From a virus (lineage: Duplodnaviria; Heunggongvirae; Uroviricota; Caudoviricetes), in the IMG/VR virus record IMGVR_UViG_3300046642_001000, positions 103,935 through 167,934 of that record: DNA of 64,000 bases. The stretch is one strand, 5' to 3'. Each line of letters begins with the position of its first letter. Within the stretch, counting starts at the first letter, position 1. Made by a program: the position numbers and the translations under genes. This document shows, piece after piece, positions 5,616-57,531 of the stretch. The notes beneath the pieces were generated by a model. It was not told where the DNA came from. It made no database searches and worked only from the letters and a program-made list of their open reading frames with translations.

Positions 5616-8600
5616 TTGTCCCGGCTCGACGACATCATCCGAGAGTCGCTCCGATCAATCTACGGGGCGTCTCAACCAAACTACTCAGGGCGTGCAGCCG
5701 GCGGGACCGGCGACAACCGGCATGGCGGTGGTGCGGGCAAGCCCGGGTACCCGGTGCCGGACGGTCTCGAGGACGACGAAGAGCAGCGGTTCCCCTTCAT
5801 GAAGGAAGGCGAGGCACCCTTGGCCAAGTCCCCCATCCCCGACGATGCCGGCGCCGCACAGGAGCCGACCGTCACCTACTCCGACCAGAGCGATCTCACC
5901 GAAGGCGGCAACGCCATGGGGACCGACCGTGTCCCCCGTGAGAACGTCGGACCGACGATCGAGGCCTACAAGAAGCAGGTCCTCTCCAAGGTCAAGCACA
6001 AGTCCGTGAAGCCCGTGGGTTCCACCGGCAAGAAGGCGTCCAGCGGGGACATCGACCTCGGCCTGGACACCGAACTGTCCCTCGAAGAGATCTCGGCCAT
6101 CCTGAAGAAGCTGGGGATCGAGCACAAGGTCGCCAAGGGACTGGGCGAGATCAACTCCAAGTTCCCGCAGTACACCCCTGATGGCAAGCCCACCAAGCTC
6201 TCCGCCCAGGTCGACCTGATGGTCGGTCCGGAGGCGTGGACCCAGTTCTCCTATTATGGACCTGGCGAGAGCGAGTCTAAGTACAAGGCGCTTCCCCGCA
6301 CAGGTCTCGTCCTCGGTCTCCTCCGGTACGCCACCGAGGAACCGCAGCCGGACGGCTCGGTCAAGTTCTGGTCCATCAGCCCGGCCAAGGGAGTCTTCCA
6401 GAAGGTCGGTCGGAAGGTCAAGAACAAGAAGGGCGAGGAAGAGTTCAAGTCGGACCGTGTGGACGCCACCAGCATCAGTGATCCCGAGGAAGTGGCCAAG
6501 CTCATCTCCAAGGGCACCGGCACGCCGTGGTCCGTGAAGGACCTGGCTGCGCCGTTCGAGCAGGTGTGGGCCAAGGCCAAGTCCACCATGGATCCGAAGA
6601 AGCTGGAGAAGGTCAAGGGCTACCTGAAGGGCTTCCTCAAGGGAGCCAAGCACGACGAGCCGTCGGAGCTCGGTGAAGCGAACGAGCCCGAGGGCGTCGT
6701 CTTCCGCGGTCTCCGTGGTCTCACTCCCCAGGAGCTCGCCAAGCTCGGCGGCAATCCGTCCCAGCCGAACGGCTCGGCGGTGATCAGCAAGGTCGACAAG
6801 AAGGGCTACTGGTCCGCCAATCCGAAGCTGGCCATGGTCTATGCCACCACCGCGGCCACTGCGGAACGGAAGGGCAACATCATGGCGATCCTCCGCGGGC
6901 GTTCGGACGCCGCGACCAAGGGTTCGGCCAAGGCGCTCAACCCCGGCACCCACGAGACCCGGATCGACAAGATCTGGTGGTCGACGGATCCGGGCCAGCT
7001 GAAGGCGGCCAAGCTCGACGAGGGCGGCGGCATCTCTCACCTCGAGGACATGAAGCCCCAGGAGTTCCTGCAGTTCCTGGCGAAGTACAAGGACCTGCCG
7101 CTCAAGGGCGGGCTCGAGGTCTCCGAGAAGGTGGACGGCTCCGCCCGCATGGAGTTCGGTGCCGAGAACGGAAAGCTCTGGACCAAGAGCAAGAACGGGA
7201 CTCCGAAGAAGTCTTCGAAGGAGTGGCCGGACAAGCCGATGTTCGCGGCTCTCAAGAACGCCCACAAGGCGCTCGAGTCCAAGCCGGTGGGACAGAACAT
7301 CCCGCCGAACACCGTCTTCACGGCCGAGGTCCTGTACACCAAGATCCCGAACTCCATCGAGTACGGTCCGAACGTCATCATGATCCACGGCGTCCACAAG
7401 GGCGACGCGGTCCTGTCCGACGAGGCCTCCAAGAAGGTGGCCAACGACCTCATCAAGAAGTCGGGCGGCCAGCTCACGGACGGCAAGGACCCGTGGAAGT
7501 TCGAGTACAAGCGGGTCATCAGCCCGGAAGACGTGATGGTGGACGTCAAGGAGGAGTTCACCTCCCTCGGACAGATCTACCAGGAGCTGAAGAAGCTCGA
7601 GCCGGACAAGCTGAAGGCGGCGGGCAAGGGCCCGTACAAGGCGGCCATGGAGCGCTTCTCGGCGATCCAGAAGGCGGTCAAGGAGAAGCTGGTCGGACAG
7701 CTCCGGAAGCAGAAGTCCTCCTACGGTCCCGAAGGCGGGGACGTGGAAGGCATCGTCTTCCGTGACCTGGAGAACGGCGCGCTCACCAAGCTCGTCGACA
7801 AGGACCTCTTCACGAAGCTCAACCAGTTCAACTGGAAGTACCGCGGTCTCATCGGCAAGGGGACCAAGGTCGACAACATCTGGCGGAACGGCGTCATCTC
7901 CGACTTCAGGAAGCGGGTGGCCACCGACGTCATCGGGAAGCCTGAGGCGGCCAGCACCGCCTTCGGCCGGCAGCTCTCTTCCCTGAACTCCGAGACAGAG
8001 TACCCGAAGGAAGCCGACACCCCCGAGAAGAAGAACGACTACCTGCTCGGACAGTGGGTGAAGAAGAACAAGGCCTTCGGCGGAAAGGACCCGGTCGCGA
8101 CCTTCAAGGCCGAGATCACCAAGGCTCAGAACGAGATGAAGCAGCTCGAGGCCGAGTGGGCCGCCGAGAAGAAGAAGGGGCCGACCGTCCAGCTCAAGGG
8201 GCAGACCCGGAAGATGGACCCGCTCGTGATGCAGCGGACGGACACGGACTTCCAGCAGGCCCACCAGTCGCTGGACGAGCTCCAGAAGGCCGCCGAGGCG
8301 ATCGGTGGGCTCAAGGGCGACCTGACCAAGAAGGTAGCCATCATGAAGCTCTTCCTCGGCCAGCACCGTCTGGAGAGGCTCCAGGGCGGCGGCGAGGAAG
8401 AGGCCGAGGAATCCGTCATGCGTGAAGCACCCGGAGTGGATTCGTACGGGGCCACCCAGCCGCAGACCGGCCAGAAGCCGACCTCGGGGTTCGACAAGAC
8501 CAGCGTCGCCCAGACCAAGACCAAGGGCGCGCCCAAGGCCACCACCGGCGTCACGACCGAGATGGCCCAGCAGATCCTCAAGAAGAACATCCCCCAGCTG

Positions 8601-11600
8601 GCGAAGCGGGGGATCAACGTCCGTGGGGCCCACCCGCTCGGGAAGGGAACACGTGGAGTCGCGTTCGACGTCGGAGGGAAGGTCCTCAAGATCACCAACG
8701 ACGAGCAGGAGGCGGTCGCTTCCTACAAGCTGATGGACGTCAACCTGAAGCACGTCGCCCGCTTCTCGGACGTCTTCCGCTTCCGTGAGGACGAGGAACT
8801 GGTCGGCGCCGTTTACGGCATCCTCCAGGAGAAGCTCGCCCCGTTCCCGGGCATGGGCAAGGACCCCAGCGGTCTGGACGCCAGCGGAGAGGCGGCTGAT
8901 CTGAACCGCGCCATCCTCGCTTTCAACCTTCAGGAGACGATCTACCGTTCGGGCTACAACTGGGACAAGACCAAGGAAGCCTGCCAGGAGGGCGTTTTCA
9001 AGAAGATCGCCGAGAAGTACCCGACCTGGAAGACGGACGAGATCGACAACAAGTACGCCATCGCCTACGCCAAGAAGATGAACGTCCAGTGGGACATCAT
9101 CACGAAGAAGGTGCATATCGACGAGATGGTGCAGGAGCTGAACTCGAAGGGGATCAAGTTCCACGACTACCACGCGGGCAACATCATGGTCCGCCAGGGC
9201 GGGGTCTACGTTCTCATCGACATCGGCTACTCCAAGGTCGCCGGCGGGAAGGAACCGCCCGTCCTGGAGAACAAGGTCCCGTACCTCGACGAAGGTCCGC
9301 CGAACAGGCTGGCCGCCCTCAAGGCCGCTCAGGCCGGTAAGAAGGCCCAGAAGGACCGTCCCATGATGGACGTGGTCCGGGACGTGCTCCCTCTCCTCAA
9401 GAAGAAGGGGATCGTGAAGGGACCGCTCAAGCCGCTCGGACACGGGGCGCACGGCATCGCCTTCGACATCGGAGCAGGTCGGGTCCTGAAGGTGACGGAC
9501 GACATCCTTGAAGCCAAGTCCTCCAACCATCTGAAGGACAAGAAGCTCAAGCACGTGGTCCACATCTTCGACGTCTTCCAGCTCCCTGGGTCGGAGTTCT
9601 ATGGCATCGTCGAGGAAAAGCTCGCCCAGATGTCGGCCTACGACAAGAAGGAGTTCGAGCTGGTGACGGACCTGCTGCAGGCCTGCAAGGCTGGCGAGGC
9701 CATCCTCTCGGGCGACTACGGCAAGGTGATGGACCAGGTCCGGCTCCACATCAAGGACAAGGACGTCCAGAAGCTGATGGACTCCCAGATGAAGGAGTTC
9801 CAGCTTCCGGAGATCATCAAGGAGCTGGCGGGCCAGCGTATCGAGTTCCTCGACTACCACGAGGGGAACCTGATGATGCGGGGCAACGACTACGTCGTCA
9901 TCGACCTCGGTCTCAGCCAGAGCCCGGGCGCGGCTCCCCCTGTCCTCGAGCGGATCGTCCACACCCTGATGCGGGAGTTCTCCGGTACCCAGCGCCTCAA
10001 GGGCCAGGGTCCGGTGGGACGTGCCGACGACCTGGAAGAGCGGAGCAAGCCGGACTACACGGACGACAAGCAGGAGTACGTCGGCGTAGACGGCGGCCTC
10101 GTGAATCACACCGAGGACGGCACGGTCGACAAGTACGCTCGAAACATCGAGGAGGCCCAGGCTGACACGGTGGGCGTGACCATAGGACGTTACCAGCCGT
10201 TCCACCGGGGTCACGCCGAAGTGATTCGGAAGCTCGCCAATACCCACACCAAGACCATCGTCCTGGTGGCCGGCAACACGCCGGACAAGAAGAACCCGTT
10301 CTCCTACGAGACCCGGCTCAAGCTCATGAAGGCGTCCCTCCCGGACGTCTGGAGGAAGCTGGAGGTCTACAAGGCGACCTCGGGCGGCAAGAACAGCGGC
10401 TTCGTCCCGGGCATCCTCTCCGACGTGGCCGGGAAGGGCAGCGCCCTGAAGGGCGACACGGCCTGCGAGATCCTGGTCGGACCCGACCGTTTCGAGCAGA
10501 TGAAGCAGCAGATCGACCGGTCCAAGGAGTACAAGGCCCAGGGGAAGGCGGCAGACAGCAACTTCGATCCCGATCTGGCCGTCGTCAAGATGCTTCCGGG
10601 CGTCAAGAACGACGACGACACCGACCGGATCAGCGGCACCCGTCTACGTCAGGCTCTGGCCAAGGACGACCGGAACGCCGTCAAGAGCATGCTCGACCCG
10701 CATGTCACCTCGAACCAGGCGACCTTCGAGTCCATCTACAAGGATCTGAAGGACGAGCTGGCCAAGAACGAGGGTCCGCTCCGGGAAGACATCGCCGACT
10801 TCGGTGGCGAGAACGCCATCATGGCCGTCATCAAGAACAACGGGGAGAAGCTCCGTGCCAAGGGCATCAACGCCGACCAGCTCCATCGCCTCGGAGCGGG
10901 ACAGGTCGGCGTGGCCTACGACATGGGCAACAACAAGGTCTTCAAGGCGACGACCTCTCCCAACGAGGCGAAGTCCTGCCTCGCCCTCAAGGGAAAGACC
11001 CTTCCGCACGTCGTCAAGATCGATGACGTCTTCCGGATGATCGACCGTCGAAACCCCGACAAGCCCCTCTACGGAATCATCCGGGAGAAGCTACACCCCC
11101 TGTCTCCGGCCGAGAAGACCGAGGTCGATGACCTGGTCGATGACCTCCGCTCCTCCGAAGTCACGGGCGGGGCGCCCCACATCGTGGACTACGACACGGT
11201 CATGAAGAAGATCCGTGACGAGCTCTCTCGCGACCTGGTGTCTGCCGGCGCCAAGAACCGCGAGCGGATCCAGCGGATGATCGACCAGAAGATCGACTAC
11301 ATCGAGCGCGGTCTGAAGAAGTACCAGATCGACCAGATGATGGCGGAGCTCAAGCAGGCCAACATCATGTTCGCCGACTACAAGGGCGACAACATCATGA
11401 AGCGTGGCGGGGAGTACGTGCTCTCTGACCCGGGCGGCCGTACCAACGGCGGCGAACCGCCCGTGCTCGAGAAGATCATGGAGACCATCATCTCCGAGAT
11501 CGGCATCACCATGACCCCGGGAAGCGGCCCCGGCGGAACTCAGGCAGGTCTCAGGGCGGGAAGCTCCGGCTGGTCCAGCCCGCAGAACATGTTCACCGAC

Positions 11601-12521
11601 GAGGACGTCGCGGCCTACCAGGAAGCGCCGGAAGAGTTCGAGCTCTGGTCCGACAAGCTGAAGGGTGTCGACACGGCCAAGGCCATCGGGGAAGAGATCA
11701 TGCGGCTCCTTGAGAAGACTCAGGCCAAGACGTCTGACCGCGCCTCCAACCAGTTCGAGCACCTGGTGGCCAAGTCCCTCCAGAGCCAGGGCATCGACGC
11801 CAAGGCCGTCGGTGGCAACGATCCGAAGAAGGCGGACGTCGAGGTGACCATCGGCGGGAAGAGCGCCTACATCGAGGCCAAGTACACCGAGGCCGGCGGC
11901 GCCAACCTCGTCTCGGCCCGCATGAAGCTGGTGGACGGGAAGTGGCAGGGATCGGGCGAGCAGACCGGCTTCACGGCCGGGATCGCCAAGGACCTGGAGA
12001 CGAACCCCGACGCCCAGAAGTTCCTGAAGGAACTGCACGCCTTCGTGGCCAAGAGCCGCAAGGAGCAGGGTCTTCCGGTGCCCAAGGTCCTCTCCATGCC
12101 GTCGCAGGGGAAGCCCGCCGACATCATGAAGCGTAGTCCGAACGCCGTGACCCCGGACGAGATCAACGCCTTCATCGACAACAAGAAGTCGGCAGGCAAG
12201 GGCAACCGCTACATCTACCTGAACGTCGGGGCGGGGGACGTGCAGCAGCTGGTGGCCGCCCACTACAAGTACAAGAACGCCCCGTACATGCAGTTCGGCA
12301 ACGACTTCTATCTTCTTGGAGACGAGGACCCGTTCGGTCTCTCCAAGCTCAATCCGCCCGTCCCCCAGTTCGAAGTGACCTCGGGACGGAAGGGGGTACG
12401 TGTAGCATCCAGGACCGGTCGTTACGAGATCATCCCCGAGCTGAAGGCCCTGAAGGTCACTCCCTCTCCCTACAGCCTGGTCGATCCGAAGAAGAAGTTC
12501 CCATTCAAGAAGCAGAAGTAA
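5616..12521 (+). CDS. giant multidomain protein of 2301 aa carrying five enzyme-like domain types
   Basis: TTG start 5 nt after an AAGGAGGG Shine-Dalgarno; very high GC3; GS..G....SGDIDL near residue 135; KVDGSAR near residue 504; three G.G..G.A.D.G...K + HDYH.GN + IDIG modules each ending PPVLE; GRYQPFHRGH ... ISGTRLR. Confidence 0.85.
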   Translation: MSRLDDIIRESLRSIYGASQPNYSGRAAGGTGDNRHGGGAGKPGYPVPDGLEDDEEQRFPFMKEGEAPLAKSPIPDDAGAAQEPTVTYSDQSDLTEGGNAMGTDRVPRENVGPTIEAYKKQVLSKVKHKSVKPVGSTGKKASSGDIDLGLDTELSLEEISAILKKLGIEHKVAKGLGEINSKFPQYTPDGKPTKLSAQVDLMVGPEAWTQFSYYGPGESESKYKALPRTGLVLGLLRYATEEPQPDGSVKFWSISPAKGVFQKVGRKVKNKKGEEEFKSDRVDATSISDPEEVAKLISKGTGTPWSVKDLAAPFEQVWAKAKSTMDPKKLEKVKGYLKGFLKGAKHDEPSELGEANEPEGVVFRGLRGLTPQELAKLGGNPSQPNGSAVISKVDKKGYWSANPKLAMVYATTAATAERKGNIMAILRGRSDAATKGSAKALNPGTHETRIDKIWWSTDPGQLKAAKLDEGGGISHLEDMKPQEFLQFLAKYKDLPLKGGLEVSEKVDGSARMEFGAENGKLWTKSKNGTPKKSSKEWPDKPMFAALKNAHKALESKPVGQNIPPNTVFTAEVLYTKIPNSIEYGPNVIMIHGVHKGDAVLSDEASKKVANDLIKKSGGQLTDGKDPWKFEYKRVISPEDVMVDVKEEFTSLGQIYQELKKLEPDKLKAAGKGPYKAAMERFSAIQKAVKEKLVGQLRKQKSSYGPEGGDVEGIVFRDLENGALTKLVDKDLFTKLNQFNWKYRGLIGKGTKVDNIWRNGVISDFRKRVATDVIGKPEAASTAFGRQLSSLNSETEYPKEADTPEKKNDYLLGQWVKKNKAFGGKDPVATFKAEITKAQNEMKQLEAEWAAEKKKGPTVQLKGQTRKMDPLVMQRTDTDFQQAHQSLDELQKAAEAIGGLKGDLTKKVAIMKLFLGQHRLERLQGGGEEEAEESVMREAPGVDSYGATQPQTGQKPTSGFDKTSVAQTKTKGAPKATTGVTTEMAQQILKKNIPQLAKRGINVRGAHPLGKGTRGVAFDVGGKVLKITNDEQEAVASYKLMDVNLKHVARFSDVFRFREDEELVGAVYGILQEKLAPFPGMGKDPSGLDASGEAADLNRAILAFNLQETIYRSGYNWDKTKEACQEGVFKKIAEKYPTWKTDEIDNKYAIAYAKKMNVQWDIITKKVHIDEMVQELNSKGIKFHDYHAGNIMVRQGGVYVLIDIGYSKVAGGKEPPVLENKVPYLDEGPPNRLAALKAAQAGKKAQKDRPMMDVVRDVLPLLKKKGIVKGPLKPLGHGAHGIAFDIGAGRVLKVTDDILEAKSSNHLKDKKLKHVVHIFDVFQLPGSEFYGIVEEKLAQMSAYDKKEFELVTDLLQACKAGEAILSGDYGKVMDQVRLHIKDKDVQKLMDSQMKEFQLPEIIKELAGQRIEFLDYHEGNLMMRGNDYVVIDLGLSQSPGAAPPVLERIVHTLMREFSGTQRLKGQGPVGRADDLEERSKPDYTDDKQEYVGVDGGLVNHTEDGTVDKYARNIEEAQADTVGVTIGRYQPFHRGHAEVIRKLANTHTKTIVLVAGNTPDKKNPFSYETRLKLMKASLPDVWRKLEVYKATSGGKNSGFVPGILSDVAGKGSALKGDTACEILVGPDRFEQMKQQIDRSKEYKAQGKAADSNFDPDLAVVKMLPGVKNDDDTDRISGTRLRQALAKDDRNAVKSMLDPHVTSNQATFESIYKDLKDELAKNEGPLREDIADFGGENAIMAVIKNNGEKLRAKGINADQLHRLGAGQVGVAYDMGNNKVFKATTSPNEAKSCLALKGKTLPHVVKIDDVFRMIDRRNPDKPLYGIIREKLHPLSPAEKTEVDDLVDDLRSSEVTGGAPHIVDYDTVMKKIRDELSRDLVSAGAKNRERIQRMIDQKIDYIERGLKKYQIDQMMAELKQANIMFADYKGDNIMKRGGEYVLSDPGGRTNGGEPPVLEKIMETIISEIGITMTPGSGPGGTQAGLRAGSSGWSSPQNMFTDEDVAAYQEAPEEFELWSDKLKGVDTAKAIGEEIMRLLEKTQAKTSDRASNQFEHLVAKSLQSQGIDAKAVGGNDPKKADVEVTIGGKSAYIEAKYTEAGGANLVSARMKLVDGKWQGSGEQTGFTAGIAKDLETNPDAQKFLKELHAFVAKSRKEQGLPVPKVLSMPSQGKPADIMKRSPNAVTPDEINAFIDNKKSAGKGNRYIYLNVGAGDVQQLVAAHYKYKNAPYMQFGNDFYLLGDEDPFGLSKLNPPVPQFEVTSGRKGVRVASRTGRYEIIPELKALKVTPSPYSLVDPKKKFPFKKQK

Positions 12522-12543: not shown

Positions 12544-13068
12544 ATGGAGTCTTGGATCGCTGCCCGGTGCCCCACCGACGAGGGGGACTACATTCTCAAG
12601 AACGCTTCTCGCACCCTCATCAGGTTCAGTGAAAGGTGCCAGCCTGACATCGCCCAGCTCATGTCTGAGATGGAGGAGCTGAACGTCCCGTTCTCCTACG
12701 CCGACAAGGTCAAGGAGATCTACTTCACCCTGATGCCCGACCACGGAGACCACCTCAACGGTCTCATCCGCATCAGCTTCACGAACCAGTCCCGAGAGAT
12801 CCTCGCCCGCATCCTCATCCACGAGCTGGCCCACAACATCGACGATGAAGAAGGTCTGTCTGAACGAGACGACATCATCACCGAGAAGAAGAAGAAGGCC
12901 CGCTACCTCCCCGACACCTACGCCCGGAAGAACGTCGACGAGTACATCGCGATCGGATTCGAGACGTACTACTGCGGCACTCCCGAACAGAAGCGCAAGA
13001 TGAAGCGGTGCAACCCGCGGCTCTTTGGCGCAATTAGATACCTTCACCGAAAGTACCGAGCGCGTTGA
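12544..13068 (+). CDS. putative zinc metallopeptidase (HExxH)
   Basis: ILIHELAHNID motif; an AGGGAGGG Shine-Dalgarno lies upstream. Confidence 0.5.
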   Translation: MESWIAARCPTDEGDYILKNASRTLIRFSERCQPDIAQLMSEMEELNVPFSYADKVKEIYFTLMPDHGDHLNGLIRISFTNQSREILARILIHELAHNIDDEEGLSERDDIITEKKKKARYLPDTYARKNVDEYIAIGFETYYCGTPEQKRKMKRCNPRLFGAIRYLHRKYRAR

Positions 13069-21453: not shown

Positions 21454-21464
21454 CGTGGTATAAT
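21454..21464 (+). promoter_or_regulatory. extended -10 promoter CGTGGTATAAT
   Basis: TGGTATAAT; the annotated ATG lies 10 nt after the hexamer, so the leader is near-absent. Confidence 0.45.
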
Positions 21465-21474
21465 GGATTTCACA

Positions 21475-22452
21475 ATGGCACTCCCGGTACCAGAGAATCT
21501 GGAAGACGCTGCCCTCGTGACCCACAAGGGTTGCATGGACGGCGCGGGATGCGCGATCATGTTCATGTTGGCGGGCGGGAAGCGTGAGAACATCCACTAC
21601 GTCGCCGCCGGCATGGTCGAGAGGTTCGTCAAGAAGGATCCCGTCTTCCAGTCGAACAAGTTCCTGATCTTCGCGGACGTCGGGCTCAACACCCCGAAGT
21701 ACGCCGAGGTCCTCGAGCGTCGTGGCAACCTGGTCCTCATCGACCACCACGACACGTCGCTCCACCTGCTGGGCCGTCACTGGGCGGAGATCGAAGAGAA
21801 GAACCAGCGCTGCGGCACGATGATGCTCAGGGACTACCTGATCAGGATCGACGACGAGAACAAGGTCGGATTCGGGCGGCGGCTCAAGAGCACGAGCTAC
21901 CGGATTTTCGCCGAGTCCATCGACGACCACGACCGCTGGCTACGCCAGAAGCTCCCGTTCTCGGAGGACCTGGCGACCTTCATGGTCTTCGTCGGCCAGC
22001 AGGACTTCATCACCCGCTTCGCCGACCCGAAGGACCGGATCTGTCAGAACATCGCGCTCGGTCGTGGCAAGGTCTACTTCACGCAGTTCGAGGACGACAT
22101 CATCAACATCCTCGACAGGCGTCGAGATGAGGCGATCGAGGAGGCCATGAAGAAGGTCACGGTGAAGGAGATCAAGCTCTCCGACGGGACCCAGGTGATC
22201 GGAGGGTTCGTCGTCACCAACGAGCCCAACATCTCTCTCCTCCTCAACCGGCTCCTGGAAGTCTACCCCCAGGTGCAGATGGCTGTCAGCGTCTGCATCG
22301 AGAAGGGGGCGGTCGGGATCCGCTCACGTGCCGGCGAGCTGGACGTTGGCCGGATAGCCGGCCTACTTGGTGGTGGCGGCCACAAAGGCGCCGCGGGGCA
22401 CAGGCTTCCGCAGGATCTGAGCGAAGTAATCCTGGAGCACATCTATGGCTGA
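21475..22452 (+). CDS. DHH-family phosphoesterase
   Basis: LIDHHDTS (DHH motif) and GGGGHKGAAG (DHHA1 GGGH motif); the ORF-table start at 21463 lies inside the -10, so the second ATG at 21475 is used. Confidence 0.7.
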   Translation: MALPVPENLEDAALVTHKGCMDGAGCAIMFMLAGGKRENIHYVAAGMVERFVKKDPVFQSNKFLIFADVGLNTPKYAEVLERRGNLVLIDHHDTSLHLLGRHWAEIEEKNQRCGTMMLRDYLIRIDDENKVGFGRRLKSTSYRIFAESIDDHDRWLRQKLPFSEDLATFMVFVGQQDFITRFADPKDRICQNIALGRGKVYFTQFEDDIINILDRRRDEAIEEAMKKVTVKEIKLSDGTQVIGGFVVTNEPNISLLLNRLLEVYPQVQMAVSVCIEKGAVGIRSRAGELDVGRIAGLLGGGGHKGAAGHRLPQDLSEVILEHIYG

Positions 22453-23398
22453 TATCCTCGGAGTCTCGTTCGACGACATCTTCGTCAAGCTCCTTCGGAA
22501 GCTGAGCCGGAACCCCGACTTCGTCTGCGCCCCGCGTGGACAGAAGATCAAGGAAGACCTGGCCCTCACGCTCGTCCTGACGGACCCGCGGTCCCGCTTC
22601 ATCCACAACCCGGCCCGGAAGTCGAACTACGGGTTCGCGGCCGGGGAGTTCCTCTGGTACTGGCAGGGTCGCCGGGATCTGGAGATGATGCTCTACTACA
22701 ACCGGCGGATGAAGGACTTCTCGGACGACGGCCACACGCTGAACTCGGCGTACGGCTACCGGCTCCGGGCGGGGTCCGACCTGCTGGACATGGACAGCCA
22801 GTGGAACAACTGCATCGCCACCCTGTCGGGGGACTCGGACAGTCGACGGGCGGTCATGACCATCTTCGCCCCGATCGACGCGGACGTGGCGGTGCACCAG
22901 GGATCGAAGGACGTGCCCTGCACCCTCTCGCTCCAGTTCTTCATCCGTGACGGCGCGCTCCACCTGCACGTCCACATGCGGTCCAACGACGCCATCTGGG
23001 GCCTGACGAATGACCTCTTCAGCTTCACGCTCTTCCAGGAGTGCATGTTCCTGGACCTGAAGCGGCAGAACCCGAAGTTCGCGGACCTGCGCCTCGGCCA
23101 GTACTACCACACGGCCGGCTCGCTCCACCTGTACGAGCGCCACTTCGAGATGGCCGAAGAGGTCATCAAGCTCTACGACGAGGGCTTCAGGTGCTACGAC
23201 GCCATGCCGGCCCTCACCAGCCTCGAGTCTCTGGACAAGCTGGGCTACGACGAGGAAGAGCTTCGCAAGCGTTACATCGACCAGATCCAGCTCTCCAAGT
23301 ACGAGGGCGGGGAGCTGTGGCTGGCCGACGAGTTGAATGTACACCGGCAAAAGAGGGACGCCGAAGAGTCCCTCAAGGGAGACAAGAAAGCAGGCTGA
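22445..23398 (+). CDS. thymidylate synthase (ThyA)-family protein, candidate pyrimidine hydroxymethylase
   Basis: VPCTLSLQFFIRDGALHLHVHMRSNDAIWGLTNDLFSFTLFQ aligns with the ThyA PCH..FQFYV...RS.D...G.PFNI core, but carries Thr where ThyA has His; RRAVMTIF matches the ThyA RR motif. Confidence 0.7.
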   Translation: MADILGVSFDDIFVKLLRKLSRNPDFVCAPRGQKIKEDLALTLVLTDPRSRFIHNPARKSNYGFAAGEFLWYWQGRRDLEMMLYYNRRMKDFSDDGHTLNSAYGYRLRAGSDLLDMDSQWNNCIATLSGDSDSRRAVMTIFAPIDADVAVHQGSKDVPCTLSLQFFIRDGALHLHVHMRSNDAIWGLTNDLFSFTLFQECMFLDLKRQNPKFADLRLGQYYHTAGSLHLYERHFEMAEEVIKLYDEGFRCYDAMPALTSLESLDKLGYDEEELRKRYIDQIQLSKYEGGELWLADELNVHRQKRDAEESLKGDKKAG

Positions 23399-24525: not shown

Positions 24526-24784
24526 AGGGTACGAGTGCCACCTGACGTTCGACGCTGAACAGGCGAAGCTCGCCGAGGCGTCGTGTCCCTACGGCTGGAA
24601 GTTCAGCCGGATCGAGGGCGATCCCGTCCTCGGCCAACGACTCTACTGCTACTGGACGGCGTGGCACGGGTCGCAGGGAGTGATCGAAGACGAGATGCGC
24701 GGCGCCATCAGACTGGCCAATCGCAACGGTCTCCCCCTGGTCAGGGCGAAGATCGAACACATCATCTACGACCAGAGGTACTAA
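24518..24784 (+). CDS. hypothetical protein
   Basis: 88-aa ORF. Confidence 0.4.
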   Translation: MDRGYECHLTFDAEQAKLAEASCPYGWKFSRIEGDPVLGQRLYCYWTAWHGSQGVIEDEMRGAIRLANRNGLPLVRAKIEHIIYDQRY

Positions 24785-25338
24785 TGAGCGTAGTCATCAA
24801 TCTCTACGGTGGACCGGGCACCGGCAAGTCCACCTCGGCGGCCTACCTCTTCTACCTGCTGAAGTCGCAGGGGAAGAACGCCGAGCTCGTGCGGGAGTAC
24901 GTCAAGGACTGGGCGTGGGAGGGTCGCACGATCTCCACCTACGACCAGATCTACCTGCTCGGCAAGCAGGTCCGTCGGGAGAGCTTCCTCTACGGGAAGG
25001 TGGACATGATCGTCACCGACGCCCCGATCATGCTGGGCATCTACTACGCCAGCAAGTTCTCTCCCCTCTCGGTCAGTGAGGGAGTCCGGGCCATGACCCT
25101 CGCCTACTACCGGCAGGCGGCCGAGGACGGCCACCAGCACCACCACGTCTTCCTGGAGCGCACCAAGCCGTACAAGCAGGAGGGTCGGTTCCAGAACGAG
25201 GAGCAGGCCAAGCAGATCGACAACGGCGTCTATGGGATGCTGTCCGACCTGCGGATCCCGCTTGTCCGATGCGGGACGCAAAGAGAAGATCTAGACGAGC
25301 TACTTACCACTCTGAAGGTAAACAACCCCAAGGCTTAG
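24784..25338 (+). CDS. P-loop nucleotide or nucleoside kinase-like protein
   Basis: Walker A YGGPGTGKST near the N-terminus; 184 aa. Confidence 0.6.
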   Translation: MSVVINLYGGPGTGKSTSAAYLFYLLKSQGKNAELVREYVKDWAWEGRTISTYDQIYLLGKQVRRESFLYGKVDMIVTDAPIMLGIYYASKFSPLSVSEGVRAMTLAYYRQAAEDGHQHHHVFLERTKPYKQEGRFQNEEQAKQIDNGVYGMLSDLRIPLVRCGTQREDLDELLTTLKVNNPKA

Positions 25339-25354: not shown

Positions 25355-26419
25355 ATGAAGCGCACGACAAAGCTCAGGATCTTCTACAAGTCCAAGTCCT
25401 CAGGACAGGGTCACAATCCCTACCACACGGGCGGACTGGCGGCGAACGCGCTGCACACCGTCGGCGTCCTCCGTCGGGAGGGTGTAGACGTAGACCTCGT
25501 CGCCGTGTCCAGCTTCGACGAGCTGGCGGCCTACCTTCGGGCCAACCCGGACATCACCCACGCCGTCATCGAGGCGGTCTGGGTCAAGGCGTCCGAGGTC
25601 GTCCTCCTGTCCCACGCCCACCCCCACCTCAAGATCGTGGTGCGGGCGCACTCCAAGATCGGGTTCCTCCAGGTCGAGCCCGAGGCCATCCCGGTCATCC
25701 GGGCCCTCATCGACCTCGGGGAAGAGTACCCGAACATCTCTTTCTCCAGCAACAACCAGGAGTTCTGCAACTCTCTCGGGGAAGTCTACGGCGACGTGCT
25801 CTACCTGCCGAACCTCTTCGACTGGGACGGGTCTCCCCCGAAGAAGCACAGCCACGATCGCATCCTCAGGCTGGCTTCTTTCGGTGCCACCCGGCTCCTG
25901 AAGCTCCACTCTTCCGCGGCACTGGCGGCCCTTCAGGTCGCCGTCCGCCTCGACCGGCAGCTGGAGTTCTACGTCAATACCGACAATACCCCGGGAGGTC
26001 ACAGCGTCCGGAACACGATGCGGAACCTCTTCGCTGGTCTCCCCTGGGCGAAGCTGATCGAGGTGAGCTGGCAGGACGCGGCCACCTTCCGGGAGACCAT
26101 CGCTGAGATGGACCTGGTCTTCCAGCTGTCCGCCACCGAGACCTTCTGCCTGGTGGCCGCGGACGCCGTGTCCAGCGGGGTGCCAGTGATCGTCGGAGAG
26201 GCCGTCAGCTGGGTGCCGGAAAGGTACCAGTCCAACATCGACGACACCTCGGAGGCGGCAACCGAGGCCATCCGCGCACTGGAGAGCAGCCACAAGACGG
26301 TCAAGGTGCAGCAGGAAGCCCTGAACGACTTCGTGGAGTCTTCGACTCGGATCTGGCGCACGTTCCTCGGGATGCCGAGCGGACGGGAAAGCCGTAAGAA
26401 CCTCTGGTGGATTTTCTAA
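25355..26419 (+). CDS. GT-B fold glycosyltransferase (GT1/GT4-like)
   Basis: C-terminal SATETFCLVAADAVSSGVPVIVGE resembles the GT4 E..G..EAMA.G.PVI donor-binding block. Confidence 0.55.
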   Translation: MKRTTKLRIFYKSKSSGQGHNPYHTGGLAANALHTVGVLRREGVDVDLVAVSSFDELAAYLRANPDITHAVIEAVWVKASEVVLLSHAHPHLKIVVRAHSKIGFLQVEPEAIPVIRALIDLGEEYPNISFSSNNQEFCNSLGEVYGDVLYLPNLFDWDGSPPKKHSHDRILRLASFGATRLLKLHSSAALAALQVAVRLDRQLEFYVNTDNTPGGHSVRNTMRNLFAGLPWAKLIEVSWQDAATFRETIAEMDLVFQLSATETFCLVAADAVSSGVPVIVGEAVSWVPERYQSNIDDTSEAATEAIRALESSHKTVKVQQEALNDFVESSTRIWRTFLGMPSGRESRKNLWWIF

Positions 26420-32960: not shown

Positions 32961-33185
32961 ATGGCCAAGATCAAGATCACCTGGATGAGTGACGGAGCAG
33001 GCGTCGATAGCATCCACGAGAACGGTCCCAAGATGGCCAAGGACAGTTATCTTGGCCACATCACCCGCATCGAGGACGAGTGGTTCTTCGTCCAGGCGGG
33101 AGTCCAGAAGCCGCACGGTCCCTACGGTTCGATGGCGGAAGTTCGCCGAGCAGCTCTCAAGATCGTCGATGGGGAGTACATCTAG
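32961..33185 (+). CDS. small hypothetical protein
   Basis: 74-aa ORF. Confidence 0.45.
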   Translation: MAKIKITWMSDGAGVDSIHENGPKMAKDSYLGHITRIEDEWFFVQAGVQKPHGPYGSMAEVRRAALKIVDGEYI

Positions 33186-33187
33186 GT

Positions 33188-34321
33188 ATGTCCATGCGCG
33201 TCGCTCTCGTCATTCCGACCATCCGGGAGAACTCCTTCAAGGACTTCATCTCCCGGTGGGAAGCCCTCGGTCTCTATCAGGCAGTCGACCTGATCGTGAT
33301 GGAGGACAACCCGAAGAAGACCTTCGACGTTTCCAGCGTCGACAAGCGGTGGGGAGCGGTCCACCTCTGCTGGGAAGACATCGAGGCTGACCTCGGGAAA
33401 GACAGCTGGATCATCCCCCGGCGTTCGGACACGGTCAGGAGCTACGCGTACTACTACGCCTGGAAGATGGGTTACGATTTCATCCTCACCCTCGACGACG
33501 ACTGCTACCCGCCGTCGAGGGATGTGGATGGACTTCAGTACGAGGACGGGGAGTCGTTCGTCGCCTCCCACCTCCAGTACCTGGAGAAGCGGACCCGGTG
33601 GTTCAACACCCTGAACAAGGTGAAGCCACGTGGCATCCCGTTCTACAACCTCGGTCGCAACGACAAGGTGATCGTCAATCACGGGCTCTGGACCAACGTG
33701 CTGGACTACGACGCCCCGTTCCAGCTGGCCAACCCGATCCCCGAGGAGTTCAGCTTCGACAACCGGATCGTGCCCAACGGCTCGTACTTCCCGATGTGCG
33801 GCATGAACGTCATGTGGCGCCGGGACGCGACGGTCCTCATGTACCACCTGCTCATGGGCCAGGTCCTCCACTCCAGAGAGAACAGCAAGATCTACACCCC
33901 GCCCCTGGGGACTCTCCTCACGGTCCCGGACTCTCCGGGCCTGGCGCTGGAGAAGTTGGCCTTCGACAGGTTCGGCGACATCTGGTGCGGCATCCTGATG
34001 AAGAAGATCGCGGACGTGAAGCGTCTTCAGGTCTCGACAGGCATGCCCTACATCCGGCACGAACGGGCCAGCAACCCGTTCGCCAACCTGAAGAAGGAAG
34101 CGAACGGCATCGAGGTCAACGAGAAGTTCTGGGAGCACGTCGACAAGGCTCAGATCTCTCCGGGGCTCGACCTGGATGGCTGCTATGGCGAGATGGGGCA
34201 ACACATCGGAGCCTATTCGGAGTACCCAGAACACGCCCAGTACTTCAGGCGGCTGGGGGAAGCGATGGTCATCTGGTCCAAGCTCTTCCGGCGCCACGGC
34301 GGCGGAACTTCGGGAGTCTGA
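33188..34321 (+). CDS. GT75-like glycosyltransferase (reversibly glycosylated polypeptide / UDP-arabinopyranose mutase family)
   Basis: IPTIR, TLDDDCYP (DxD), HGLWTNVLDYDAPFQL, PMCGMN, and STGMPYIRHERASNPFANLKKE aligning with plant RGP blocks. Confidence 0.7.
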   Translation: MSMRVALVIPTIRENSFKDFISRWEALGLYQAVDLIVMEDNPKKTFDVSSVDKRWGAVHLCWEDIEADLGKDSWIIPRRSDTVRSYAYYYAWKMGYDFILTLDDDCYPPSRDVDGLQYEDGESFVASHLQYLEKRTRWFNTLNKVKPRGIPFYNLGRNDKVIVNHGLWTNVLDYDAPFQLANPIPEEFSFDNRIVPNGSYFPMCGMNVMWRRDATVLMYHLLMGQVLHSRENSKIYTPPLGTLLTVPDSPGLALEKLAFDRFGDIWCGILMKKIADVKRLQVSTGMPYIRHERASNPFANLKKEANGIEVNEKFWEHVDKAQISPGLDLDGCYGEMGQHIGAYSEYPEHAQYFRRLGEAMVIWSKLFRRHGGGTSGV

Positions 34322-40653: not shown

Positions 40654-41442
40654 ATGAGAGTATGTCACTTCAGCGACTGGCACAGCGACCGGAACAAGCT
40701 TCCGGCGGCTGACCTGTACGTCTGCACAGGGGACATGTTCCCGAACTTCCCTCTCCTGCAGCTGGAGAACAAGTGGGGGCGTGACAAGAAGCTGTGGCGC
40801 GCCAACATGCACCTCTTCAAAGAGGGGGATGTCGCTCCTCCGGGATGGCCCGTCGGTCGGGAGTTCGATCCCGAGTTCGAGGCGGTGCACCAGAAGCGGT
40901 GGGTCAAGGAGGTTCTCAATTCCTACCGTGACCTCATGCCGGCGGAAAGCCGGGACAACCCGGTCATCTGCGTCCGTGGCAACCACGACTTCGCAGACCT
41001 CTCTGATGCGTTCGGAGGGGACGTGTGGGAGGTCAACCTAGATCCATCCCGGACCACCGTTGTTCACGGCCTGAAGGTCGGTGGGTGCCGTGGCATACCT
41101 CAGATCGTTGGGGAGTGGAGCGACGAGTTCGAGGAGAGCGGGAAGCCGCCGGAGGGTCTCATGATCCGTCCGAACCAGGGGAACTTCGATGAGGTGGTCA
41201 CTCACCTGCCCACCGACATCGAGCTCCTCCTGACCCATGCGCCGCCGTACGGGATGCTGGATGCTGAGGGAAACCACTACGGTTCCCGCGCCGTCCGGAG
41301 CTACATCAACGAGCGGCTCTACGTCTGGGGCAAGGTGCGTGCCCACTTCTTCGGACACGTTCACATGTCCCGAGGGAACCGGAGCGAGGCAGGGATCCTC
41401 TTCAGCAATGCAGCTCGTGGACACTTTGTGTACGAGTTGTGA
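40654..41442 (+). CDS. calcineurin-like metallophosphoesterase
   Basis: GDMF, GNHD and GHVH motifs. Confidence 0.7.
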   Translation: MRVCHFSDWHSDRNKLPAADLYVCTGDMFPNFPLLQLENKWGRDKKLWRANMHLFKEGDVAPPGWPVGREFDPEFEAVHQKRWVKEVLNSYRDLMPAESRDNPVICVRGNHDFADLSDAFGGDVWEVNLDPSRTTVVHGLKVGGCRGIPQIVGEWSDEFEESGKPPEGLMIRPNQGNFDEVVTHLPTDIELLLTHAPPYGMLDAEGNHYGSRAVRSYINERLYVWGKVRAHFFGHVHMSRGNRSEAGILFSNAARGHFVYEL

Positions 41443-43161: not shown

Positions 43162-44028
43162 ATGGATCGCGTCGATGACATCTACGGCGACGGTATCGGA
43201 TACGTGCACCTTCTGGACAGCATGGGGGACGAGTTCACTCCCGCCGAGGACGCCCGCACCAGCACCAACAAGGGGCGCCTCGGTCCGGAGAAGGACGCGG
43301 CTCTCCAGGAACGTCTGACCAAGGACGCTCACACCTCCCCGTTCGAGGGGGTGGTGGTCAAGGTGGAGATCATGACCCCGCTCTTCGTCCTCAGGGAGCT
43401 GGACCGCCACCGCACGGTATCGAAGGTCGCCGACGAAGATGTGGAGATCATCACCCCTGAGGAGTCTGGCCGGAAGTGGTTCGCTCGCAACGAGATGAGC
43501 GGCCGCTACGTCCAAATGCCGAACCTCTACTACCACCCGGTCCAGGTTCGCGCCCAGAGCAAGACGAACATGCAGGGCGGCGGACCGATCCAACTGGTGG
43601 ACGACGCGGTGGCTCGGGAGTTCAAGGAGTCTGGCCAGGTTCTCTGTATGATGGCCCGGGACCTCTATGACCGGGCAGTCGCTGCCGGAGTCGAGAAGGG
43701 GATCGCCCGCATCTACAACACCCAGAACCAGTACACCAAGATCAGACTCACAGGAAGCCTCAAGAACTTCTGTGACTTCCTGTACCTCCGGCTACCAGGG
43801 GTGGTGCTGTGGGAGTGTCGGAGAGTCGCCGAGGCGCTCGAGGAGCTGCTGAAGGAAGCTTTCCCCTCTCCCATGGAGCAGTGGCGCAGGAACATCTACG
43901 AAACTGTCCGACTGACCAAGGCCGATCGAGCGGCGCTGGTCGAGATGATGGACGCCTTGGGAGAGTTCGGAGACGAGTCACTGCTTCCGGCAGAGTGGCA
44001 GTCGGCCCTAGCAAAGGTGAGGGGATAG
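43162..44028 (+). CDS. thyX: flavin-dependent thymidylate synthase (ThyX)
   Basis: ThyX signature LDRHRTVSKVADEDVE ... SGRY (RHR-x7-8-S ... SxRY). Confidence 0.75.
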   Translation: MDRVDDIYGDGIGYVHLLDSMGDEFTPAEDARTSTNKGRLGPEKDAALQERLTKDAHTSPFEGVVVKVEIMTPLFVLRELDRHRTVSKVADEDVEIITPEESGRKWFARNEMSGRYVQMPNLYYHPVQVRAQSKTNMQGGGPIQLVDDAVAREFKESGQVLCMMARDLYDRAVAAGVEKGIARIYNTQNQYTKIRLTGSLKNFCDFLYLRLPGVVLWECRRVAEALEELLKEAFPSPMEQWRRNIYETVRLTKADRAALVEMMDALGEFGDESLLPAEWQSALAKVRG

Positions 44029-54709: not shown

Positions 54710-55300
54710 ATGGAACGCAAGGTCCCGAAGGGTGAGGTGCCCGCCGTGGTCCTCATCAACCCGAACTTCAGCCACAACGTGGGTGCCGCCCTCCGTGGCT
54801 GCTCCTGCTTCGACGCCAAGCAGCTCTGGTGGACGGGGAAGCGGGTCCAGATCGACCTGAACTCGGGCGAGCGCCTGAAGCGGGAAGAGCGGATGAAGGG
54901 CTACAAGAACGTGGTCTGGACGAACCACGACCGTCCGCTGGACCAGTTCCCGGCGGGTGTGGTACCGGTGGTCGTGGAGCTCCTGGCCACCAGCGAGCCG
55001 CTGACCACGTTCGTCCACCCTGAGAACGCAGTCTACATCTTCGGGCCCGAGGACGGGGACGTGCCGGTCTCTATCCGGACGCTGGCCCACCGCTTCGTCT
55101 TCATCCCCAGCCGCCACTGCCTGAACCTCTCGGCGGCGGTGAACGTGGTGCTGGCCGACCGCATGATGAAGCGGCAGCTGGCCGGGCTGGAGCCCATCGT
55201 CCCGGTCGGGGAGATGCTGTGGGAGGACCGGGACCAGGCGCGGCCGCCCCGTGGCTTCTTCTCTCCGGAGCTGGACAAGTTCGGCCTGGACGGGAGGTAG
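54710..55300 (+). CDS. SpoU/TrmH-family (SPOUT) RNA 2'-O-methyltransferase
   Basis: NVGAALR, YIFGPEDGDVP, and IP....CLNLSAAVNVVL motifs. Confidence 0.6.
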   Translation: MERKVPKGEVPAVVLINPNFSHNVGAALRGCSCFDAKQLWWTGKRVQIDLNSGERLKREERMKGYKNVVWTNHDRPLDQFPAGVVPVVVELLATSEPLTTFVHPENAVYIFGPEDGDVPVSIRTLAHRFVFIPSRHCLNLSAAVNVVLADRMMKRQLAGLEPIVPVGEMLWEDRDQARPPRGFFSPELDKFGLDGR

Positions 55301-56747: not shown

Positions 56748-56950
56748 GCCATCGGTGGAGCGGCTGGCCTGGCGCCTGGTGCCTGGACTGCGGGATGGAA
56801 GACCCGAACGAGATCTGTCTGGCGGACCACGACCACGACACGTCTCCGACGACCTGTCCCGTGGACTGGAGCAAGGTGCCGGCCGACTGTCCGGAGCCCG
56901 GGTCCAAGCGGTGTGACCCGTACGAAAGGCAAAGAGAGAAAGCCAAATGA
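56744..56950 (+). CDS. small Cys-rich protein
   Basis: 68-aa ORF. Confidence 0.4.
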   Translation: MSHRWSGWPGAWCLDCGMEDPNEICLADHDHDTSPTTCPVDWSKVPADCPEPGSKRCDPYERQREKAK

Positions 56951-57531
56951 TCTGGTTCACGAGCGACATGCACTACGGGCACACCAACATCATCAAGTAC
57001 GCCAACCGTCCCTTCAAGCACGTGGACGAGATGGACCAGACGATGGAGGACAGCTGGCGCGCCTGTGTCCGACCCGCCGACACGGTCTATGTGCTGGGCG
57101 ACTGCGCCTTCTACAAGGACCAGACCAAGACCATCAGGCTCTTCAGCCGGCTGCCCGGCACCAAGTACCTGGTCTGGGGCAACCACGACAAACACATCCG
57201 GAAGAACGCCGAGTTCCGGAAGCTCTTCGTGAAGACCGAGGACCTGCTCGACATCAAGGTTCCTGACCAGACGGCCGACGGCGGGGAGCGGAGGATCGTG
57301 CTCTGCCACTACGCCATGCGGGTCTGGAACAAGTCGCACTTCGGGTCCTACCAGCTGTACGGACACAGCCACGGATCCCTGCCCGATGACCCGCACTCCC
57401 TCTCCCTGGACGTAGGGGTAGACTGCTGGGGCTTTCAGCCCGTCACTTTCGAGCAGGTCCGGGAGCGGATGGCGAGGAAGACCTTCAAGCCGATCGACCA
57501 CCACGACCGGGACCGCTACGGAAAGCAGTAG
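56947..57531 (+). CDS. calcineurin-like metallophosphoesterase
   Basis: SDMHYGH, GNHD and GHSHG motifs. Confidence 0.65.
   Translation: MIWFTSDMHYGHTNIIKYANRPFKHVDEMDQTMEDSWRACVRPADTVYVLGDCAFYKDQTKTIRLFSRLPGTKYLVWGNHDKHIRKNAEFRKLFVKTEDLLDIKVPDQTADGGERRIVLCHYAMRVWNKSHFGSYQLYGHSHGSLPDDPHSLSLDVGVDCWGFQPVTFEQVRERMARKTFKPIDHHDRDRYGKQ

Follow-up and report, generated by a model that had tools for sequence, protein, structure and literature searches.

Triplicated minimal kinase modules within a giant multidomain protein of an uncultured phage

Minimal kinases of phages and truncated kinases within polyvalent proteins are already known (PMC13645617, PMC5512222). The kinase of phage T7 (gp0.7, hereafter T7K), which is hyperpromiscuous towards Ser, Thr and Tyr, uses mass phosphorylation to inactivate many bacterial defence systems (PMC13645617). 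It has DPV in place of DFG, which probably locks a DFG-in-like state and has led to the proposal of constitutive activity; Ser216, just past the DPV (D+3), is an inhibitory autophosphorylation site, and a C-terminal DNA-binding domain directs the kinase to nucleic-acid-binding proteins (PMC13645617). Relatives of T7K are reported almost only from T7-like phages and a few jumbo phages (PMC13645617). The kinases of polyvalent proteins belong to the STY-kinase superfamily, reside in very large phage and plasmid proteins and have lost the C-terminal subdomain (PMC5512222). Here we describe a giant gene (5616-12521, plus strand) from a 64,000-nt stretch of IMG/VR virus record IMGVR_UViG_3300046642_001000, hereafter the window, which originates from an uncultured tailed phage. 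The 2301-aa product of the gene contains three diverged copies of a minimal kinase module, arranged around a nucleotidyltransferase-like domain.

Triplication, fold and catalytic residues

The modules occupy positions 8541-9281 (K1; residues 976-1222, 247 aa), 9348-9965 (K2; residues 1245-1450, 206 aa) and 10809-11486 (K3; residues 1732-1957, 226 aa) of the plus strand, and K1 has the longest helical insert of the three. An internal triplication of a kinase-like module within 8600-11490 was proposed in the initial annotation of this DNA, and pairwise BLASTP agrees with it: alignments spanning the whole module give 34% identity between K1 and K2 (E 1e-29), 33% between K1 and K3 (E 1e-24) and 36% between K2 and K3 (E 8e-35). 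A profile built from 41 modules and applied to all six frames of the window finds the sites of K1, K2 and K3 and no others. Likeness at the DNA level is restricted to short stretches at conserved motifs (60-78%), which indicates that the duplication is old; judging from these comparisons, K1-K3 are paralogues that arose by an old intragenic duplication. The annotation also described the first two copies as contiguous, with an NMNAT-like domain between the second and the third. K1 and K2 are separated by a linker of 22 aa, and the NMNAT-like domain (HIGH motif at residue 1524, ISGTRLR at residue 1672) lies between K2 and K3.

The Gly-rich, catalytic-loop, DFG-like and PPVLE motifs are each present where the annotation had located them, with the Gly-rich loops starting at nt 8640, 9438 and 10893. 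In K1, GKGTRG at residue 1009 is followed by Lys1025, Glu1032, Asp1184 (DYHAGN), Asn1189, Asp1202 (DIGYS) and PPVLE at 1214. The same series in K2 reads GHGAHG at 1275, Lys1292, Glu1299, Asp1413 (DYHEGN), Asn1418, Asp1430 (DLGLS) and PPVLE at 1441, and in K3 GAGQVG at 1760-1765, Lys1777, Glu1784, Asp1921 (DYKGDN), Asn1926, Asp1938 and Gly1940 (DPGGR) and PPVLE at 1948. We aligned 41 modules from the window protein and 13 of its homologues (alignment A1). Six positions are invariant, in K2 numbering G33, K48, D169, N174, D186 and G188: the Gly-rich loop contributes its second Gly, VLK its Lys, D-x-x-x-x-N its catalytic Asp and Asn, and D-x-G its Asp and Gly. E55, on the helix after VLK, is conserved in at least 90%. 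A wider set comprises 212 modules from proteins that also have the NMNAT-like domain (domain D), 124 of them located before D and 88 after it, and G.G..G, K, T.D..EA, D....N and D.G are at least 90% conserved in each of these positional classes. The predicted chemistry, phosphotransfer from ATP at three competent active sites, has good support, and the giant protein almost certainly contains three paralogous, apparently active kinase-fold domains.

Structure prediction, named in the annotation as the check that could overturn the kinase assignment, returns a kinase fold for K2 and K3. The AlphaFold2 model of K2, made with A1, has a pLDDT of 95.5 and a pTM of 0.90, and the model of K3, made with a smaller alignment, 89.5 and 0.85. 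Their order of elements is identical: an N-terminal helix, three strands, alphaC, two strands, a helical bundle, two short strands and a terminal helix. The 50 PDB matches listed by Foldseek comprise MAP kinases, further protein kinases and APH enzymes, and nothing else. A sequence profile search of the PDB yields 108 matches; the 60 listed are all protein kinases, with YopO as the best (9e-4). The modules display the features of the bilobal PKL superfamily, namely an N-lobe sheet with alphaC, a hinge and a core of catalytic loop and metal loop, and the motif residues are in place in K1, K2 and K3.

What follows this core is strongly reduced. The modules stop about 18 residues past D-x-G, the models ending in a single short helix that begins at PPVLE; the activation loop and helices alphaF-alphaI are absent from the K2 and K3 models. 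No module matches the canonical Pkinase family of Pfam, and the activation segment and C-lobe that characterize it are lacking. Pfam APH and ABC1 score 21.9 and 18.3 bits on the window protein, below their cut-offs of 23.2 and 22.9 bits, and at E≤0.01 are matched by 2 and 5 of the 41 modules, respectively. In either positional class, half or more of the modules keep PP.LE, and we suspect that PPVLE is the counterpart of the APE/alphaEF element in canonical kinases.

While the kinase-like triplication of the initial annotation stands, its suggestion that the third copy is a pseudokinase with a degraded DFG does not. The defining losses of a pseudokinase, those of the beta3 Lys, the catalytic Asp or the metal-binding Asp, are found in none of K1, K2 and K3, and these residues are conserved across the family. 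K3 does have DPG where K1 has DIG and K2 DLG, its catalytic loop has Lys where theirs have His, and it lacks the Ser after D-x-G; these deviations would fit a scaffold or decoy role for K3, or for more of the copies. K3 nevertheless retains Lys1777, Glu1784, Asp1921, Asn1926, Asp1938 and the Gly-rich loop, the post-D class conserves the catalytic residues at 90% or more, DP(V) is the motif of the highly active T7K (PMC13645617), and the confident K3 model has the same fold. DYKGDN is in fact nearer to the canonical D-x-K-x-x-N than the His-bearing loops of K1 and K2. The sole real difference is the missing Ser, which most modules have: it is found at D+4 in at least 70% of pre-D modules, and the family consensus is DLG.S. 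A pseudokinase among the three copies is accordingly regarded as very improbable.

The giant gene is a single open reading frame (ORF), in which at least seven segments are recognizable in the order leader, A, B, C, K1, K2, D, K3, tail, E. The GC content at third codon positions (GC3) is 0.90, the same as in neighbouring genes, and a public gene caller places an identical 2301-aa gene on the public assembly. Fourteen homologues measure 1313-2382 aa. Long spurious ORFs are common in high-GC genomes, and one of 1520 aa runs on the opposite strand at 5685-10247, so one might ask whether composition or chance alone produced the repeat as an artefact, or whether the ORF is no genuine gene. The module E-values of 1e-24 to 8e-35 were obtained despite composition-based statistics, and GC3, synteny, hundreds of homologues and confident folds already refute this explanation, whose probability is negligible. 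The opposite-strand ORF is a shadow ORF, typical of high-GC DNA.

Relation to described kinases and occurrence in metagenomes

The family consensus, LG.G..G.AF...VLKVT.D..EA...DVF.F...F.DYH.GNIMKRG..YV.IDLG.S...G..PPVLE, follows the same motif order as T7K, whose motif run is MLGNGHFSAAY...NRVIKV...NVYDV...GGAFSIDPEELIKEV. The shared order can be written as LG.G...A...V(I/L)K(V), DV, F-D-x-H-x-G-N-I-M and Y(V/I)..D-(P/L)-x; in the catalytic region, FDMHSGNIM...YITDPVS of T7K stands against F.DYH.GNIM...YV..D(L/P)G of the family. Alignment A1 and T7K are matched by hhalign with a probability of 87.7% in the N-lobe only, and a profile search against T7K aligns both lobes weakly, in the same order. 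The PHROG family of the T7 kinase (15752) matches residues 27-189 of K2 at E 3.9e-4 and 9 of the 41 modules at E≤0.01, the best at 9.3e-8; PHROG 18305, annotated as kinase, is matched by 14 of the 41. A faint match to Pfam PF27024 (Phage_T7_kinase) is on record in the public annotation of homologue P0012. The best structural neighbours in BFVD are small phage proteins, which include annotated T7-like kinases and A0A7L7SMK1, a protein treated as a T7K homologue (PMC13645617).

Further likenesses concern size and ends. Both are minimal phage kinase domains, about 200-240 aa long, that stop shortly past the metal-binding motif; the Phe of DFG is absent in both, D-P is common to K3 and T7K, a Ser is present just past the motif in K1 and K2 as in T7K, and a GG...P..L helix forms the C-terminal end in both. 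By contrast, the helical insert of the modules is longer and varies, their commonest motif is DLG or DIG and not DPV, their Ser is at D+4 and not D+3, and they occur in one to five copies inside multi-enzyme proteins, whereas T7K is the product of one early gene. A shut-off or DNA-binding C-terminal domain of the T7K type was not detected in a PHROG scan of the whole protein, which at E≤0.01 finds only cytidyltransferase, NMNAT and kinase families and one unannotated family. The published cut-off for T7K homologues is E≤1e-10 (PMC13645617), against 9.3e-8 for the best module and 3.9e-4 for K2. The sequence comparisons therefore suggest that the modules are distant relatives of T7K, with T7K as their closest characterized relative, and place them outside the T7K family by that cut-off.

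The kinases of polyvalent proteins resemble the modules in having lost the C-terminal subdomain while keeping the residues of ATP binding and phosphotransfer. The host proteins are also alike: many unrelated catalytic domains are joined in one very large phage protein, with nucleotidyltransferase and 2H domains, and homologues of the window protein swap in 2H or SLT (the latter in P0004 and P0014). The published kinases differ in having an insert between the catalytic His and Asp, where D-Y-H-x-G-N is contiguous in our modules, and in occurring mainly in prophages of the Verrucomicrobia-Chlamydia group and Bacteroidetes (PMC5512222). No MuF, portal or packaging-associated domain is detected in the window protein, and the giant gene is part of a replication module. 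The 2H domains of polyvalent proteins are reported never to occur with RNA ligases (PMC5512222), whereas in P0002 a 2H domain is fused to the ligase-like domain. Sequence comparison does not place the modules in RIO1/RIO2, in ArkI (the archaeal tRNA 2'-kinase, 7vnx) or in APH; these kinases keep substrate-site helices after the DFG-equivalent motif, and the modules end there.

An exhaustive profile search covering 1.84 billion cluster representatives recovers 289 proteins at E≤1e-30; their number rises to 1476 at ≤1e-10 and to 3655 at ≤0.001. Region profiles of the window protein were mapped onto 198 fetched family proteins: a single kinase copy is found in 103, two copies in 36, three in 40, four in 15 and five in 3. 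K-D-K is the prevailing arrangement, most often in the form (A)-(C)-K(1-4)-D-K-tail. The set further includes short D-K-tail proteins, K-K proteins and some 100 stand-alone kinases with lengths of 220-320 aa. In average-linkage clustering most post-D kinases separate from the pre-D kinases, and K3 groups with the former; the largest cluster at 38% identity consists of 39 modules, all post-D. This separation indicates that the paralogues are old and positionally conserved.

All 10 of the clusters that we looked up are single-member metagenome clusters, with no name beyond "cytidyltransferase-like protein". Among 50,697 deposited phage genomes, the giant gene has no megablast match, a tblastn search with the whole protein gives no match to the kinase part at E≤1e-5, and K1 and K3 have no tblastn match at E≤1. 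Since these BLAST-level searches are negative, the kinase family appears to be absent from cultured and deposited phages at that sensitivity. The modules would thus represent a much larger, metagenome-only branch of minimal T7K-like kinases (289 representatives at the strictest threshold and thousands at weaker ones), typically present as 2-5 diverged copies that surround an NMNAT-like domain within giant multi-enzyme proteins, in which an RNA-ligase-like domain is often linked to them. In the literature searched, we found no published account of this large branch, its multi-copy arrangement or its fixed association with the NMNAT-like domain and tail. Stand-alone members L001 and L002 are encoded on phage contigs with terminase or sheath genes, and no informative linked genes were seen in their neighbourhoods. 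On L002, P0016 (2247-3623, 458 aa) has a second, more divergent kinase-like half, DTGSSRAVFKIDNDKVLKVA, ending in IVIVDYGLD; tandem kinases therefore exist outside the giant proteins too.

Possible roles of the kinase modules

In a reading that we consider moderately probable, the modules work as active T7K-like protein kinases in host takeover or anti-defence, physically linked to enzymes of nucleic acids and nucleotides; protein substrates are part of this estimate. Each module would move the gamma-phosphate of ATP onto protein hydroxyl groups, as T7K does, with a plan of N-lobe (Gly-rich loop, beta3 Lys, alphaC Glu), variable helical bundle, D-x-(H/K)-x-x-N, D-x-G and PPVLE helix, and with the DFG Phe absent as in T7K, where this absence is the proposed basis of constitutive activity. 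Tethering to an RNA-ligase-like domain, two nucleotidyltransferase-like domains and a possible nuclease domain may concentrate the kinases on host proteins associated with RNA or DNA, defence or translation factors being candidate targets, in parallel to the targeting of T7K by its DNA-binding C-terminal domain. The divergent helical inserts could give K1, K2 and K3 different target ranges, and the old duplicates have persisted as distinct positional paralogues around the NMNAT-like domain. Protein substrates are favoured because the only characterized relative is a protein kinase with the same truncation, because structural and profile matches lean to protein kinases, and because the T7K precedent explains the tethering to domains that bind or process nucleic acids. 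If the modules are active protein kinases, the giant proteins would be multi-kinase takeover or anti-defence factors with built-in targeting domains. At about 200 aa and with confident models, the compact modules are also suited to the study of what a minimal kinase fold needs for activity and substrate choice.

The neighbouring domains offer another explanation. Domain D (10143-10790, plus strand) is an NMNAT-like nucleotidyltransferase of the HIGH-motif (HxGH) type, with GRYQPFHRGH at residue 1524 and ISGTRLR at residue 1672. It matches Pfam CTP_transf_like at 2.8e-8, above the cut-off, and PHROG cytidyltransferase families at about 3e-18; the best PDB sequence matches are NadM (2qjt, 1.5e-7) and archaeal NMNAT MJ0541 (1.5e-6), over the N-terminal ~57 residues only. 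Domain C (7029-8495, plus strand) is an RNA-ligase-like nucleotidyltransferase with an invariant KxDG (SEKVDGSA, Lys505). Pfam RNA_lig_T4_1 is matched by 11 of 12 orthologous segments, with 1.9e-5 as the best value and none reaching the cut-off, while one segment matches RNA_ligase; SEKVDGSA and EGxVFRD are invariant, and tblastn finds a hypothetical protein of Ralstonia phage RsoM2USA. A profile search of the PDB gave no usable match, hhalign with T4 Rnl1 and T7 DNA ligase, each as a single sequence, was negative too, and domain C is called ligase-like solely from the sub-threshold Pfam matches and the invariant KxDG.

NadR and NadM are fusions of an NMN adenylyltransferase to a P-loop ribosylnicotinamide kinase or a Nudix domain and are known from bacteria and phages; phages carry NAD+ salvage enzymes against NAD+-depleting defences. 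The window protein is similar in that a nucleotidyltransferase of the NMNAT type (GRYQPFHRGH, ISGT..R) is fused to kinase domains. It differs in that the kinases have the protein-kinase fold and not the P-loop, in that several of them flank the NMNAT-like domain on both sides, and in that only ~57 residues of D align to NadM. The motifs of an NMNAT are thus present, and the P-loop ribosylnicotinamide kinase of a NadR-type fusion is not. RNA-repair systems combine a KxDG RNA ligase with a nucleotidyltransferase, an end-healing kinase and a phosphoesterase. Of such a set the window protein has the sub-threshold ligase-like domain; the 2H domain is found in P0002 and P0012 and not in the window, and the kinases are not P-loop polynucleotide kinases. 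No NadV gene was found among the scanned proteins of the window.

On these grounds the kinases could act on non-protein substrates that feed the neighbouring domains, a possible but doubtful alternative to protein phosphorylation. Nicotinamide riboside, a nucleoside or a sugar might be phosphorylated and then adenylylated by the NMNAT-like domain, in a NadR-like salvage with a protein-kinase fold in place of the P-loop kinase; or the 5'-OH or 2'-OH of RNA might be phosphorylated for the ligase-like domain, in a heal-and-seal scheme like that of tRNA ligases. The purpose would be to counter NAD+ depletion or host anticodon nucleases. Such a relay is suggested by the striking conservation of K-D-K and by the chemistry of HIGH-motif nucleotidyltransferases, but the many stand-alone kinases do not fit it, and the kinase copies exceed the needs of a two-step pathway. 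The window also has a separate gene (24583-25338) of the P-loop kinase family AAA_28 (Pfam, 2.1e-9), which includes the NadR ribosylnicotinamide kinase domain; this gene is a further point against a relay within the giant protein, and its product and the NMNAT-like domain might be the two halves of a split NadR-like pair for NAD+ salvage. In a further reading, which we regard as unlikely, K(n)-NMNAT-like-K-tail forms a new enzymatic unit and not a row of separate effectors: a kinase of the protein-kinase fold would place a phosphate monoester on Ser/Thr of a protein, on the end of an RNA or on a nucleoside, diverged kinases supplying different substrates, and the HIGH-motif nucleotidyltransferase would join a nucleotide to the phosphate. 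Should the kinases feed the nucleotidyltransferase, this would be a new kinase-nucleotidyltransferase pathway, and the enzymatic unit could mean an undescribed nucleotide-linked modification or a route to NAD+ or NAD-cap synthesis directed against host immunity, in a widespread lineage of uncultured phages.

The modules may also phosphorylate the protein that carries them. K3 is followed by a Ser-rich, acidic tail (11487-11675, plus strand; residues 1958-2020) with GLRAGSSGWSS at residue 1980, an acidic stretch and ELWSDKL. A tail of this kind, about 60 aa long, stands behind the last kinase of 44 fetched proteins, and many of these proteins extend for only another 20-30 aa; the consensus of the tail is E.G..GpG....G.rAGSS.WSs.....d.d.ee....Wq.qL. 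It may serve as a target of autophosphorylation, as a pseudosubstrate, as a cleavage site or for docking. Autophosphorylation of RAGSSxWSS in the tail, or of the Ser after DxG, might turn the other enzymatic domains of the giant protein, or its own activity, on or off, which would recall the self-inactivation of T7K. Consistent with this are the position of the tail and the basic residue upstream of its serines, and the prevalence of Ser at D+4 in pre-D modules, close to the D+3 of Ser216 in T7K (PMC13645617). The kinase modules are also poorer in Ser+Thr+Tyr (K1 11.3%, K2 7.8%, K3 10.2%) than the other domains (12.3-15.5%), which could be avoidance of self-phosphorylation or mere composition, as helical sequence alone may account for it; proteome-wide depletion, the signature of promiscuous T7K-like kinases, is not seen in the other genes (13.5%). 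K3 has no Ser after DxG and stand-alone members have no tail, the case is purely inferential, and substrates in trans are compatible with it. Switching in cis as the main role of the modules seems improbable, more so than the enzymatic unit, though a cis-regulatory role of the Ser-rich tail is possible alongside any of the other readings, including phosphorylation of host proteins.

Remaining domains and genomic neighbourhood

The N-terminal leader of about 64 aa (residues 1-64; 5616-5807, plus strand) is conserved across homologues whose next domain differs: it is 67% identical in P0002 and 57% in P0012, where a 2H phosphoesterase follows in place of domain A. Because the leader is kept although the next domain is swapped, it suggests a shared targeting or interaction signal. 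In P0004 and P0014 an SLT domain is added. Domain A (5895-6746, plus strand) resembles Pol-beta-type nucleotidyltransferases by motif only. Its alignment (A3) has invariant G42 S43 ... S50 G51 D52 x D54 and, later, D107, the window protein reading GSTGKKASSGDIDLGLD at residue 135; it has no Pfam or PDB sequence match, and weak tblastn matches are found to hypothetical proteins of Agrobacterium phage Atu_ph07 and Sinorhizobium phage Phosso. Region B, an insert of about 95 aa (residues 378-471; 6747-7028, plus strand), can be aligned with P0006 and, in part, with P0013 but with no other homologue; database searches, PDB sequences included, give no match for it. The R…S…E spacing in region B (…VVFRGLRGL…YWSANP…HETRI…) faintly recalls ADP-ribosyltransferases, a putative likeness. 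The C-terminal domain E (11676-12518, plus strand) is a possible PD-(D/E)xK nuclease similar to Mrr_cat, with the candidate motif ADVEV...IEAK at residue 2073. Its Pfam Mrr_cat E-values, 0.054 here and 0.0014 in P0004, are both below the cut-off in significance, and it has no PDB sequence match. The full domain is present in only five fetched proteins; in most proteins the profile of E detects just the ~60-aa tail.

The giant gene is located between the PolA gene and the genes of UvsX, a 5'-3' exonuclease and DnaB. It is directly followed by a gene for a zincin-like metallopeptidase (12544-13068, plus strand; HELAH), which matches Pfam ATLF (anthrax lethal-factor-like) at 2e-5, below the cut-off. 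The peptidase gene directly follows the giant gene also in L006 (11640-12143) and L007 (11732-12256), where the gene order is kept and the giant proteins are 41% and 36% identical to that of the window; the peptidase may have a part in processing the giant protein, or it may act as an effector in its own right. Over the whole window (1-64000), 72 of 76 GC3-filtered ORFs are on the plus strand, with a GC3 of about 0.9, and no tRNA genes are found. The replication genes are at most ~30% identical to those of any deposited phage, which points to an uncultured lineage.

Other genes of the window concern nucleotide and RNA metabolism. An RNA 2'-O-methyltransferase of the SpoU type (54710-55300), two calcineurin-like phosphoesterases (40654-41442 and 56947-57531) and a DHH/DHHA1 phosphoesterase (21463-22452) would be further RNA- or nucleotide-processing functions of the same phage. 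Two thymidylate-synthase-type genes (ThyA-like, 22445-23398; ThyX, 43162-44028) and two glycosyltransferase genes (GT4-conflict, 25355-26419; RGP family, 33080-34321) are suggestive of modified or glycosylated DNA bases.

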